Shown in pieces: positions 16,482-20,752 of a stretch of DNA of 49,715 bases. The stretch is from a virus (taxonomy: Duplodnaviria; Heunggongvirae; Uroviricota; Caudoviricetes). Location of the stretch: the IMG/VR virus record IMGVR_UViG_2851949629_000006, positions 1 to 49,715 of that record; one strand, given 5' to 3'. A program made the translations under genes and the position numbers. The first letter of the stretch is position 1. Every line of letters starts with the position of its first letter. Below the pieces are notes generated by a model. That model did no database searches and was not told the DNA's origin. It saw only the letters and a list, made by a program, of their open reading frames with translations.

Positions 16482-16829
16482 ATGAGAAAACAGATACAGG
16501 CTCTTGGTCGACTCAAAACAGGCCAGATGAACAAAACAGAATCTGCGTATTGCCAGCACCTTGAGCAGCGTAAACGTGCAGGGGAAATCGCCTGGTATCG
16601 ATTCGAGGGTATCAAGCTGCGGTTAGCTGATAACACGTTTTATACGCCCGATTTCGCTGTGATGCTCGCCACCGGAGAGATGGAACTGCACGAAGTGAAA
16701 GGGGGATTCTGGACCGACGACGCCAGGGTGAAAACCAAAGTAGCCGCAGATCAGTATCCGTTCCGAATCATCGGGGTAACGGTTAAACCAAAGAAAGCTG
16801 GTGGCGGCTGGAACATCGAAGAGTTCTGA
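16482..16829 (+). CDS. hypothetical protein with PD-(D/E)XK-like motif (VRR-NUC-like nuclease candidate)
   Basis: Motif ...YTPDFAV...ELHEVKGG... (PD...E-x-K) in a 115-aa protein. Confidence 0.4.
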   Translation: MRKQIQALGRLKTGQMNKTESAYCQHLEQRKRAGEIAWYRFEGIKLRLADNTFYTPDFAVMLATGEMELHEVKGGFWTDDARVKTKVAADQYPFRIIGVTVKPKKAGGGWNIEEF

Positions 16830-16890
16830 ATCGACGATCTTTTTAGTTATCAATGTTATCAATAAGTTATGTGGATAAGCGAGGGTAAAG

Positions 16891-17403
16891 ATGGAAAGTA
16901 ATATCAAAGGGTTAGTTGCCGCCGGGCATGAGATGGCTTCGGAACTGAAAGCAGAATGTGGTGCTGTTGATATGCGTAGTGTGGCAAAGCTGCTCAGCGA
17001 TTTGGCAACGCAACTGGAAGTGCAACTGGTGCGTGCTAATGCGCTGGCCGAAGACCAGCAGAAAGCGATTGAGTCAATTAAGCAGGCTGATGCAGCTGTT
17101 AAGTTGGCACACGAGAAGTTTTCGGCGCTGGCGGCGGAGAATGCGCGGCTGAATAAATTTATCGTACAGAGTTGCTATGTGTTTAATGGCGAGCAGGATG
17201 AAATATCTGATGCGTATATCTGCGCAACAGACGGAGGTATGCCGCAAATTCCAGCCACCGATGCTTTTCTGGCTGAAGTACGAGCGCAGGGCGTGGAGAT
17301 GGCTATGGAGCATATGCAGTCGAGCGGTTCGTTAACATTTGGAGATTGCTACATATCACTTAACGAGTTCGCCGCCCAGCTTCGTAAAGGAGGCAACCAG
17401 TGA
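16891..17403 (+). CDS. hypothetical coiled-coil protein
   Basis: 170-aa ORF, RBS GAGGG 5 nt upstream of ATG. Confidence 0.45.
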   Translation: MESNIKGLVAAGHEMASELKAECGAVDMRSVAKLLSDLATQLEVQLVRANALAEDQQKAIESIKQADAAVKLAHEKFSALAAENARLNKFIVQSCYVFNGEQDEISDAYICATDGGMPQIPATDAFLAEVRAQGVEMAMEHMQSSGSLTFGDCYISLNEFAAQLRKGGNQ

Positions 17404-18098
17404 GCGAGATTGACTATCAGGTACTGCGTGAAAAGGCAGAAAAAGCAACGTGGGGAGACTGGGACTCATATAAACCACACCGTGGCGCACGTGGTTATGA
17501 GGTCCGACTAAGTAGTCAGGCCATTGCGCAACACGTTCTGAAAAACAACGCTGAATTTATTGCTGCCTTTAATCCAAAGGTTGCTTTGGCACTACTGGAT
17601 GAACGGGAAGCCAAAGACAAAGCATGGTCCGCACAGGACAACCATATCAACCAGCAGGCTGACCGAATTGAATCGCTGGAGAAGAAGAATGGCGAGCTGG
17701 GCAGAGCGCTGGAAGCCGCAGAGAAGCGCATTGCAGAACTGGAAAAAAGCGAAGAGCAACTCATTAATGAGCGTGACCATGCTGAGTCTGCTTTAGATGA
17801 TATGTACTTGGCAGCAACCGGTAACAGGCCGGAGTGGAGTAACTGGTTCGGCTTTTCAGATGCCGTCGATGCCGTGGTTGACAGAATTGCTGATTTAGAA
17901 GCTAAACAGCCATCGCCAGTAGTACTGGAAGGACTGGTTAAAGCAGTGCGCTTCTATGAACAGGTAAAGTGTGAGAATCCGCCAGCTGAAACCGGAGCAT
18001 GGAAGGACGCTGTTGACTGGGTGCTTAAAGAGGCTTGTCAGGCTGTAAATATTGGCACCAAAGGAGACGCAGGAGAGCAAAGCGATGAAAAACCGTAA
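17400..18098 (+). CDS. Ead/Ea22-like protein
   Basis: N-terminus MSEIDYQVLREKAEKATWGDW resembles the conserved start of Ead/Ea22-like proteins of lambdoid prophages. Confidence 0.55.
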   Translation: MSEIDYQVLREKAEKATWGDWDSYKPHRGARGYEVRLSSQAIAQHVLKNNAEFIAAFNPKVALALLDEREAKDKAWSAQDNHINQQADRIESLEKKNGELGRALEAAEKRIAELEKSEEQLINERDHAESALDDMYLAATGNRPEWSNWFGFSDAVDAVVDRIADLEAKQPSPVVLEGLVKAVRFYEQVKCENPPAETGAWKDAVDWVLKEACQAVNIGTKGDAGEQSDEKP

Positions 18099-18283
18099 GG
18101 CAAAGATGCTGATAGCAAAGCCCGGGCAGCGTATCCGTATCTCAAATCGGCTTGTTATTTACTATAGATATCTGGGTTTTAGGGGGTGTTCCTCTATTCG
18201 TTTTTACGGTGTCTGGCGGAGCAGAAGCGCGGCGCAAAACCGCTGGAAAAACCACAGTTATCTGCGCACTAAAGGAGAGTGAG

Positions 18284-18799: not shown

Positions 18800-19653
18800 C
18801 CACTATTACCAAAGAGCGACTGTTGACAATCAAGCGGTGGCGCGAAACATACGGACCGGGTAGCAACGTTGTACTGCCAGCAGAAGAAGCGGAAGAACTG
18901 GCACGAATTGCGCTGGCATCGCTGGAAGCAGAGCCTGTTCTGTATCAGTCCTGCACTCGCCCCACCTGGAATATCGGTGTTCCGTGGACGGAATGGAAAG
19001 AACGAAGTCGTGATTGCTACGAAGACGATTTGCGCTTTACAGACACGCCTGACCATGCCGGTTGGATATACAAATGCCGAAAACTATATACCACCCCGCC
19101 AGCGCCGATAGCGTTAGAGGCCATTGAAAACGCAATTGAATACATCCGCAGTATCGCTTTTCACATCGATGAAGACGATTACCACGGCAAGCATATTGCG
19201 TATTTCATGCGACAAGCACTGGCCTGGCTGGAAGGGCATTCATGCAGCAACGACAGACTGGGTAAAGCCGAGAATCAAACAGTACACGGCAACCAGGCTG
19301 CCGAATCCAATCGCGGTAATGAGTGGACCGGCAATCCTGATATTGATAACGCAATCATCATGCTCGACCGCATAGATACGCTGGAAAGTTGCGATGATGA
19401 CCGTATTGATGCGATTAAGGCTGTTTTGCGTAGACTGGCTGGCAATTCTCCGGTAACTCCGGATGGTTGGATAAGCTGTAGTGAGCGAATGCCCCCTCAA
19501 GATGATTGGATTTTAATTTATTCAAAGCACGGCGAGTATATGGCAGGACAGGTGCAAGGGGAATACGTGGAGTTGAGCGACGGCACTTTATCGTGGTTAG
19601 GGAACGTCTTGTTCTGGATGCCGTTGCCAGAACCTCCGAAGGGGGCGAAATGA
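18796..19653 (+). CDS. hypothetical protein with DUF551-like C-terminal domain
   Basis: C-terminal DGWISCSERMPPQDDWILIY...WMPLPEPP pattern typical of DUF551 phage proteins. Confidence 0.5.
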   Translation: MTTITKERLLTIKRWRETYGPGSNVVLPAEEAEELARIALASLEAEPVLYQSCTRPTWNIGVPWTEWKERSRDCYEDDLRFTDTPDHAGWIYKCRKLYTTPPAPIALEAIENAIEYIRSIAFHIDEDDYHGKHIAYFMRQALAWLEGHSCSNDRLGKAENQTVHGNQAAESNRGNEWTGNPDIDNAIIMLDRIDTLESCDDDRIDAIKAVLRRLAGNSPVTPDGWISCSERMPPQDDWILIYSKHGEYMAGQVQGEYVELSDGTLSWLGNVLFWMPLPEPPKGAK

Positions 19654-19910
19654 TGGATGTAAAAGAGAAGGTTTTGCAGGTGATGCGTTCCCGGGCTGCC
19701 CTGCAAGATAAAGCTCTCGGCGGGGAATATCCATTCACGATAGCAACCTGGAATCTGCGGTTGGCAATGGAGAAGGAATTTCCTGATGAAGAATGGCGTT
19801 CGGCAGATTTGCGCAAAATTCTTATGGAGATTGCTAAAGACGGAACAGTATCTAAAGATAAACATGCCAGCCGGATTGGTCAGGCAGTATGGAGACTGGA
19901 GGAGCGGTAA
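19650..19910 (+). CDS. hypothetical protein
   Basis: 86 aa; ATGA overlap with the upstream gene stop. Confidence 0.4.
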   Translation: MMDVKEKVLQVMRSRAALQDKALGGEYPFTIATWNLRLAMEKEFPDEEWRSADLRKILMEIAKDGTVSKDKHASRIGQAVWRLEER

Positions 19911-20191
19911 TGGCTAACCTGCAACTTGCCGTCAAAGGTGAATACTTCGATGCCATGATTCGCGGAGATAAAACGGAAGAGTATCGCCTGTGTAATGACT
20001 ACTGGAATAAGCGAATCATGTTCCGGGAATATGACCGCCTGATTATCACAAAGGGATATCCGAAGCGCGACGACTTCAGTCGCAGAATTGACGTCCCGTA
20101 TAACGGATATGAAATAAAAACAATCACACATCCACACTTCGGTGATAAACCGGTAAAGGTGTTCGCGATAAAGGTGAATATTGATGGCTAA
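19910..20191 (+). CDS. ASCH/PUA-like small protein
   Basis: 93 aa from the ATG at 19910 (TAATG overlap with upstream stop); fold assignment tentative. Confidence 0.35.
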   Translation: MANLQLAVKGEYFDAMIRGDKTEEYRLCNDYWNKRIMFREYDRLIITKGYPKRDDFSRRIDVPYNGYEIKTITHPHFGDKPVKVFAIKVNIDG

Positions 20192-20522
20192 ATCAGCAGC
20201 AGAGCGCAAAGCCGCTCAGAGAGCCAGACAAGCTGAATCCGGTGTGCGTAAGCTGGAAATTGTGCTTGATGCTCAGGAAATTGAAATGCTGGAGCGTAAC
20301 TGTGCCACGCGTCGCCCCGGGCGTGTGCCTTACGAATTTGGTGAGTATATTGCGTTACTTATCCGCCAGGATGATGCTCGCGTGCACGGGCGTATAAAAT
20401 CGATCAGCAGAAAACGTTGCGGTAAGTGCGGCGAGAGAGTTCCTGTGAATTCATGCCCGTGTAATGGTGACTCACAATGCTGGGTGACTAAAGGCTGGCA
20501 TGAAACGAAATTAATAGTGTGA
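20181..20522 (+). CDS. hypothetical protein with C-terminal CxxC...CxC cluster
   Basis: 113-aa ORF; RKRCGKCGERVPVNSCPCNGDSQC. Confidence 0.4.
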   Translation: MMAKSAAERKAAQRARQAESGVRKLEIVLDAQEIEMLERNCATRRPGRVPYEFGEYIALLIRQDDARVHGRIKSISRKRCGKCGERVPVNSCPCNGDSQCWVTKGWHETKLIV

Positions 20523-20752
20523 CATGTCACGAAGGTGTTATGCCAAAAATACGCTACGACCTTGAAGATATGAGAGATAACTCAGCAAATTTTCCGAAAG
20601 AGGTTAAATTTCTCATGCATAAGTATGGTTGCGCCAGGAGGGATATAGTTATCGACAGTCAGCACCCTTGCGGCGAGGATGTAATTTTCATTCGCGGTAA
20701 ATGGGAAGGGTATCTTGACGAGAGTTTTTACGATGAATTTGATGGACTTTGA
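20519..20752 (+). CDS. hypothetical protein
   Basis: 77-aa ORF overlapping neighbours by 4 bp on each side. Confidence 0.35.
   Translation: MTCHEGVMPKIRYDLEDMRDNSANFPKEVKFLMHKYGCARRDIVIDSQHPCGEDVIFIRGKWEGYLDESFYDEFDGL

Follow-up and report, generated by a model that had tools for sequence, protein, structure and literature searches.

A 49,715-nt stretch of viral DNA (IMG/VR record IMGVR_UViG_2851949629_000006, positions 1 to 49,715; hereafter the window) carries nine small genes, g1 to g9, between the gene for a P-like helicase loader and terS, the gene for the small terminase. We analysed this block with respect to late-gene control. As judged from the sequence, it is fairly probable that several lytic operons of the phage are controlled directly by the repressor, without Q antitermination, and that a terminator insulates the packaging operon. 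The block itself, in a phiV10/epsilon15-type E. coli prophage, is an ordinary mosaic set of small early genes.

The window spans the integrase gene (1-1257) through the lysis genes and therefore contains a complete prophage of this type. We assign it to the genus Uetakevirus from DNA similarity and from how the genes of the repressor, replication, terS-terL and portal modules are ordered. Employing megablast, we found 95-97% identity between the region 14000-21500 and E. coli phages PAS61, TL-2011b, phiV10, ZX5 and others, with matches covering only 44-63% of the region in mosaic pieces. The gene order is syntenic with that of TL-2011b, PAS61 and Salmonella phage epsilon15.

Repressor operators and the boundaries of the block

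A preliminary description of the block had pointed to a non-lambda mode of late-gene control, citing dispersed operators and the lack of a recognisable Q antiterminator. The operators are indeed dispersed. The 17-bp sequence ATTACC-N5-GGTAAT, identical to the operator consensus of epsilon15, occurs 16 times in the window at two or fewer mismatches, versus 1.2 expected. Operators and the genes that they accompany include the following:

13327 and 13389: operators at OL
13462-14046, minus strand: repressor
14101: operator at OR
16401 and 16463: operators between the stop codon of the P-like gene and g1
20794 and 20812: operators directly ahead of terS
24022: operator ahead of the portal operon
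41397 and 42410: operators flanking the antirepressor (Ant region)
41486-42142, minus strand: Ant antirepressor
43920: operator ahead of a 673-aa open reading frame (ORF; 44040-46061), presumed tailspike

The nine-gene block is bracketed by the operator pairs 16401/16463 and 20794/20812, and at least the first three late operons (terS-terL, portal to tail, tailspike) have a repressor operator ahead of them. In the RefSeq record of epsilon15, sites of the same form carry the label 'repressor' at OL/OR and downstream of the replication gene; others so labelled lie 20 bases ahead of terS and in front of the portal operon and the tailspike gene. A rho-independent terminator is annotated immediately behind gp49, the gene that precedes terS. 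Dispersed operators and the terminator after gp49 are thus already on record for epsilon15 and are not new here. The proposal of non-lambda control is favoured by the lack of Q and by operators that bracket the block and precede late operons, but the architecture is the published one of epsilon15/phiV10 and not peculiar to this DNA.

The absence of Q was borne out by profile searches of each small protein. The nine proteins showed no match to Q or a late activator in Pfam (E<=0.1), PHROGs, NCBIfam or PADLOC, the NCBIfam and PADLOC scans yielding nothing relevant, and no match to Ogr/Delta, Mor/C, RinA/ArpU or Lpa in Pfam, NCBIfam or PHROG. Twenty further ORFs of the prophage gave no Q or late activator in PHROGs, and no N-like protein was recognised in the prophage. 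Comparison of lambda Q, N15 Q and ZF40 Q with the whole window by tblastn produced only noise (E>=0.08, inside structural genes). The absence of Q is real, and it is a trait of the genus rather than a peculiarity of this prophage.

The preliminary description had overlooked a strong terminator and a conserved extended -10 element in front of terS, as well as the regulator-like protein g8. The boundary between g9 and terS is composed as follows:

20758-20783, plus strand: intrinsic terminator GCCGCC-AACTAT-GGCGGC followed by TTTATTTT, closing the early-right (nin-like) operon
20787-20828, plus strand: proposed packaging-operon promoter with operators, based on sequence conservation and operator matches
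20787-20795, plus strand: extended -10, TG-g-TACTAT, overlapped by the first operator
20794-20810 and 20812-20828: operators, the second reaching the ATG of terS
20827, plus strand: ATG of terS (small terminase; PF03592, E 4e-30)

Based on a terminator scan and RNA folding, the terminator has 7 GC-rich pairs and a fold of -16.2 kcal/mol (z -3.75). It is conserved in 37 distinct junctions from Escherichia, Salmonella, Citrobacter, Klebsiella, Buttiauxella, Rahnella and a metagenome-assembled genome of Advenella. In the same junctions, the TG and positions T1, A2, A5 and T6 of the hexamer are invariant while the others vary (TACTAT, TATTAT, TAGTAT or TATGAT, with G, A or T after the TG). Only promoter-critical positions are conserved, which is the pattern expected of an extended -10 promoter, and the equivalent site of epsilon15, at 12-27, is annotated as 'repressor'. 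We predict that 20787-20795 is a repressor-controlled promoter of the packaging operon. The only promoter-like pair upstream of the terminator, a weak TTGACG-17-TTTGAT, lies inside g9 and is absent from relatives without g9.

The other end of the block shows a comparable arrangement:

15570-16364, plus strand: P-like helicase loader (phrog_109, E 1e-87)
16370-16389, plus strand: weak hairpin GCGC-GATA-GCGC and seven T in a row, immediately behind the stop codon of the P-like gene (fold -7.4 kcal/mol, z -1.4)
16401-16479, plus strand: control region of the nine-gene block, with two operators, a -35-like and a -10-like element
16401-16417, plus strand: operator ATTACCTTATGGGTAAT; the pair 16401/16463 matches with 0 and 1 mismatch
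16436-16441 and 16459-16464, plus strand: -35-like TTGATT and -10-like TTTAAT at 17-nt spacing, read from the sequence
16463-16479: operator overlapping the -10 and the predicted start

The hairpin is possibly a leaky terminator that closes the replication genes, and an equivalent one is found at the corresponding place in epsilon15. TTGATT-17-TTTAAT is the predicted sigma-70-like promoter of the nine-gene block. Upstream of its first nin-like gene epsilon15 keeps this layout, with the first site annotated as 'repressor', though the spacer sequence differs.

In the scheme that we favour, the late genes would form separate operons (terS-terL; portal to tail; tailspike; lysis) instead of one Q-dependent transcript. 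The prophage repressor would silence each lytic operon directly, and the terminator at 20758-20783 would shield the packaging operon from early transcription. With an operator before each late operon and direct repression, no Q would therefore be needed, and derepression alone would suffice for late expression from the operator-linked promoters. The functional phages phiV10, epsilon15, PAS61 and ZX5 share the organisation, which counts in favour of the scheme.

Several points weigh against it. Simultaneous derepression would give no obvious timing of early and late genes, and the operators could act as roadblocks instead of promoter occluders. The proposed terS promoter is without a -35 element; a two-hexamer promoter scan detected only the early-right promoter (PR) near 14147 and none at the late boundaries, and the upstream regions of the portal, tailspike and lysis genes show no convincing sigma-70 promoter. 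Co-variation of operator and divergent repressor at the terS-proximal site in Providencia and Morganella gave no discrimination either way. No account of late-gene control in the epsilon15/phiV10-type genus was found in the literature within reach, the epsilon15 genome and SPC32H repressor papers being outside that scope; papers on ZX5, phiV10 and Salmonella prophages make no statement on late control. Finally, a sequence shared by several upstream regions, YATATGTGGTTW, could be the target of an unrecognised activator. It was located at the following positions:

16452, 24083, 42460 and 43969, plus strand: YATATGTGGTTW in the window
46083-46096: YATATGTGGTTW in the window
2992, 24755 and 35957: YATATGTGGTTW in epsilon15 (locus L093)

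In the window as in epsilon15, YATATGTGGTTW follows an operator at a distance of 32-44 nt in front of four operons (nin-like, portal, tailspike and a fourth), and it is also present before the lysis genes. As convincing sigma-70 promoters are lacking in these regions, a late activator that sequence searches fail to recognise might act on YATATGTGGTTW before the nin-like, portal, tailspike and lysis operons. It could be a small protein or the PerC-family protein of the early-left operon:

10188-10487, minus strand: PerC-family transcriptional activator (PF06069, 30.1 bits, cutoff 22.6; phrog_868 'transcriptional activator', E 6.5e-62)

The homologue of this protein in epsilon15, gp31, bears the same name. 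We regard such an activator as unlikely: YATATGTGGTTW is absent upstream of terS, no evidence ties PerC proteins to phage late promoters, and the conservation of YATATGTGGTTW, in other genera as well, may reflect only the close relatedness of the phages compared.

The g8 protein and its linked palindrome

Within the nine-gene block, g8 is the only regulator-like protein:

20184-20522, plus strand: g8, ribbon-helix-helix and zinc-ribbon protein, 112 aa, of the epsilon15 gp49 / N15 gp46 family
20519-20530: palindrome GTGACATGTCAC (GTGAC-NN-GTCAC), overlapping the stop codon of g8

g8 is a homologue of epsilon15 gp49 and N15 gp46, with a match to phrog_536 'transcriptional regulator' (E 3.5e-54). 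With 151 representatives at 50% clustering the family is small, and it has no Pfam domain. In a confident structural model (predicted local distance difference test, pLDDT, 91.8), a basic N-terminal helix is followed by a strand-helix-helix unit, a long helix and a cysteine knuckle; the beta-alpha-alpha fold identifies g8 as a predicted DNA-binding protein of the ribbon-helix-helix type with a zinc ribbon. Among 82 close relatives, which were chosen for carrying g8, g8 is adjacent to terS in 81, and this adjacency is the sole constant feature of the block.

A profile search against the PDB weakly related the C-terminal half of g8 to TraR and YbiI (E 0.02). This is a weak lead only for a TraR/DksA protein, because hhalign gave only 44% and 26% probability, fold searches with g8 retrieved neither TraR nor DksA, and the DxxDxA tip motif that DksA/TraR proteins require for binding RNA polymerase (bioRxiv 10.64898/2026.07.27.740977) is absent from g8 and from the family consensus.

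The palindrome GTGACATGTCAC overlaps the stop codon of g8 in the window and that of its homologue in epsilon15. In ZF40, N15, phiKO2, a Yersinia P2-like phage and a Klebsiella phage, the homologue's stop codon is overlapped or closely followed by the palindrome or by a version with another central pair. We also gathered 80 prophage loci from GTDB, in many genera, with closer g8 sequences (48-80% protein identity), the full family being without conserved stretches for an alignment-based search. At least 52 of the 80 carry the palindrome at the stop codon of g8, a lower bound as a few loci were missed through frameshifts; a cruder count gave 59. Only 17 of these loci have an epsilon15-type terminase downstream, and the pairing of g8 with the palindrome therefore does not hinge on the epsilon15 type of phage. 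Altogether, 1.5 Mb of these loci contain 106 copies, versus 1.4 expected: the 59 beside g8-like gene ends by the crude test and 47 elsewhere. By genome, there are 3 copies in epsilon15, N15 and ZF40 each, 2 in the window and 0 in lambda, the sole negative control for these counts. The palindrome as an RNA hairpin is unlikely, with a stem of only 4 bp. A literature search found no occurrence of the palindrome string and no description of g8 together with it.

Extra copies tend toward the ends of operons. In the window, a second exact copy of GTGACATGTCAC at 40631-40642 covers the stop codon of a 98-aa membrane ORF (40338-40634, phrog_3075), 1 base before an intrinsic terminator (40644-40668) at the end of the long morphogenesis operon. 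Its counterpart in epsilon15, at 19517, precedes an annotated terminator, as does the copy at 39612, and the copy at 2142 abuts a hairpin after terL. A terminator lies within 100 nt at 15 of 48 distinct palindrome loci versus 4 of 32 loci without the palindrome, the baseline being 6.5%. The proximity is an enrichment, not a rule.

In ZF40 and many prophages of Xenorhabdus, Providencia and Yersinia, the palindrome is found within a recurring coding context (...LLGG-R/C-D-M-S-H/Q...), which in ZF40 is a cII-like gene:

7622 in ZF40 (locus L177), and loci L126, L132, L137, L145, L146, L149, L151-L153, L155, L165, L169 and L170: recurring-context copies

This hints that g8 may act also on lysis-lysogeny genes in those phages.

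On the simplest view, the palindrome would be where g8 binds. Binding could block read-through, let g8 autoregulate through a roadblock on its stop codon, or alter termination. A role as a classical activator of the terS promoter was rejected: depending on the relative, the palindrome lies about 68, 85 or 271 bp from the -10, a spread that rules out classical activator geometry. g8 was also rejected as a general replacement of Q. It is not simply the Q of this phage because true Q genes coexist with it in N15 and ZF40, and P2-like phages carry it.

g8 might nevertheless be an analogue, not a homologue, of Q if early-right transcription reads through into terS, with g8 loaded on DNA at the palindrome as an antiterminator or termination modulator. 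Its position as the last early gene before terS in all but one of the 82 relatives is consistent with this, as is the spacing of the palindrome, which precedes the terminator by 23 to 227 nt in epsilon15, in the short junctions and in the window. So are the copies next to terminators described above, and the weak likeness to TraR, an RNA polymerase binder. Such a role is improbable, however: the coexistence with Q and the occurrence in P2-like phages argue against it, two thirds of the palindrome loci have no terminator nearby, ribbon-helix-helix proteins are mostly repressors, and read-through by g8 would leave the repressor operators downstream of the terminator unexplained.

A broader and doubtful proposal is that the g8 family constitutes an undescribed class of phage regulators with a 12-bp site of its own, which in the Q-less epsilon15-type phages would set read-through from operon to operon and provide the missing early-to-late switch. 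If true, the class would combine a basic helix, a ribbon-helix-helix unit and a zinc ribbon, with sites on its own stop codon, at operon ends next to terminators and, in other phages, in cII-like genes.

In several genera, small genes with a LexA-box-like CTGT-N8-ACAG upstream are inserted directly after the g8 homologue:

2783-2860 of locus L092, and loci L094, L095, L101, L106, L107, L144 and L159: LexA-box-like insertions

The nine genes and the rest of the prophage

Consistent with the preliminary description, nine plus-strand ORFs lie between the P-like gene and terS, with overlaps of 1-8 nt between most of them; the series is interrupted twice, by gaps of 61 and 185 nt. The block is a distal early-right (nin-like) accessory operon of mosaic, translationally coupled small genes. 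In addition to g8, it comprises the following:

16482-16829, plus strand: g1, DUF1064-family PD-(D/E)XK protein, Holliday-junction-resolvase-like, 115 aa (PF06356, 26.2 bits, cutoff 24.7; phrog_190 'Holliday junction resolvase', E 1.2e-43)
16891-17403, plus strand: g2, Eae/Ea22-related protein, 170 aa (phrog_492, 368 and 250, in part common to g3; the PAS61 homologue is named Eae)
17400-18098, plus strand: g3, Ead/Ea22-like coiled-coil protein, 232 aa, GTG start (PF13935, 69.5 bits, cutoff 27)
18284-18799, plus strand: g4, MmcB-like PD-(D/E)XK fold protein, 171 aa
18796-19653, plus strand: g5, 285 aa, with a C-terminal DUF551 domain (PF04448, 44.4 bits, cutoff 22, residues 224-282)
19650-19910, plus strand: g6, small protein (phrog_2814; the RCS47 homologue is named 'eaa protein')
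19910-20191, plus strand: g7, small protein (phrog_625; the RCS47 homologue is named ASCH domain-containing by RefSeq)
20540-20752, plus strand: g9, accessory ORF, 70 aa (phrog_1541), an insertion/deletion variant

The domain assignments made earlier from the letters alone could be substantiated. g1 shows both the family profile and the motif (TPDF...ELHEVKG) of the PD-(D/E)XK superfamily and is a putative nuclease of that superfamily; g4 has a restriction-endonuclease-like fold with conserved D, E and K. The Ead/Ea22-like gene is g3, equal in length to the 'Ea22 protein' of PAS61, and the DUF551-like C-terminus belongs to g5. The start of g6 was shifted to the second Met, which fits the family profile. 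For g7, no Pfam match was found at E<=0.1, and the ASCH label of RefSeq was not confirmed.

In the 82 relatives, g3, g4, g5, g6 and g9 are each found in 11 to 26, and g4, g6, g7 and g9 are optional. g9 is present in 22; the remainder keep an 8-codon remnant, which gives a junction of 125 bp versus 311 bp. The segment 18055-20193, from a g4 remnant to g7, is about 95% identical in P1-like phages (RCS47 and some P1 isolates) and in Shiga toxin (Stx) phages; the small genes therefore move between unrelated phage types. The two PD-(D/E)XK proteins have no evident link to late control: because the content of the block is mosaic (g4 occurs in only 12 of the 82), they are optional cargo.

Besides g8 and the PerC-family protein, the regulators of the prophage include a Cro-like protein and an AlpA/Xis-type protein. 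A strong intrinsic terminator (14453-14472, -15 kcal/mol) lies directly after the Cro-like gene, ahead of the replication genes. Just upstream of the Ant gene, Rfam matches to C4 antisense RNA and isrK were found at 42190-42374 (minus strand); together with Ant and the operators 41397 and 42410 they look like an antirepressor control module of the P1/Gifsy type. Between terL and the portal operon, a 115-aa ORF in opposite orientation (phrog_3163; within 22981-23700, minus strand) and a tRNA-Arg(TCT) gene (23624-23700) are inserted.

The left arm contains three IS66-family copies within 2144-9088, with full-length transposases at 2144-3757 and 4101-5714 and a shorter one at 7182-8273, each accompanied by ORFs resembling TnpB and TnpA. 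A NinI-like phosphatase gene (9117-9548) seems to have been cut short by one of the copies. The gene for the O-like replication initiator is broken up into two ORFs, 14798-15346 and 15377-15607, which match positions 1-195 and 208-276 of the phrog_1032 profile; its counterpart in PAS61 is a single 271-aa gene. The prophage may therefore be replication-defective. That Q was lost from a decayed copy, as the split gene and the interrupted left arm could suggest, is very improbable, since viable phiV10, epsilon15, PAS61 and TL-2011b have the identical order, g8 being immediately followed by terS, and lack Q.

Comparison with known systems

As a mosaic variant of a published phage architecture, the block matters little in itself. 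The question that it raises is the timing of late genes in epsilon15/phiV10-type phages, which serve as O157 reporter phages and are serotype converters. The concrete elements supplied here are the terminator, extended -10 and operator pair at terS, the shared upstream motif, and a regulator-like protein with a linked palindrome. The last of these, of modest interest, is the lead worth following.

g8 resembles the ribbon-helix-helix regulators Arc, Mnt, CopG, TacA and ParD in its predicted N-terminal beta-alpha-alpha fold and in a short palindrome linked to its gene. Unlike them, it has two additions, a conserved basic helix at the N-terminus and a cysteine zinc ribbon at the C-terminus, and its linked site is located at the gene's 3' end instead of in the promoter. 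It is also without a toxin partner, in contrast to the antitoxins TacA and ParD. For the position of the site, LacI offers a parallel: bound at O3, at the 3' end of lacI, it forms a roadblock and gives rise to a truncated, tmRNA-tagged product. A g8 site over the end of its own coding sequence would similarly permit autoregulation together with a block downstream, a pure analogy, as the binding of g8 is only predicted.

In phage P1, operators of C1 are dispersed over many operons, and the late genes, with a recognisable late-promoter consensus, also need the activator Lpa. The present prophage is P1-like in having one repressor with sites before several lytic operons and an antirepressor module with a C4-type antisense RNA, and it differs from P1 in that no Lpa-like protein was found.

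The likeness to the nin region of lambda consists in accessory genes between the P-like and late genes, a protein of the junction-nuclease type and a terminator before the late genes. None of the nine proteins, however, matches a lambda Nin protein or any Q family. Unlike in the nin/Q layout of lambda, the lysis cassette is at the far end of the late region, and the late boundary carries a repressor operator, which is absent at lambda pR'.

The closest correspondence is with epsilon15 (gp43-gp49), phiV10, TL-2011b and PAS61, which share the order of replication genes, operator, resolvase-type nuclease, Eae/Ead, DUF551, small ORFs, gp49-type protein, terminator, operator and terS. In epsilon15, a RuvC-type resolvase takes the place of the DUF1064 protein, and the present copy differs from the epsilon15/phiV10 group by its IS66 insertions and split O-like gene.

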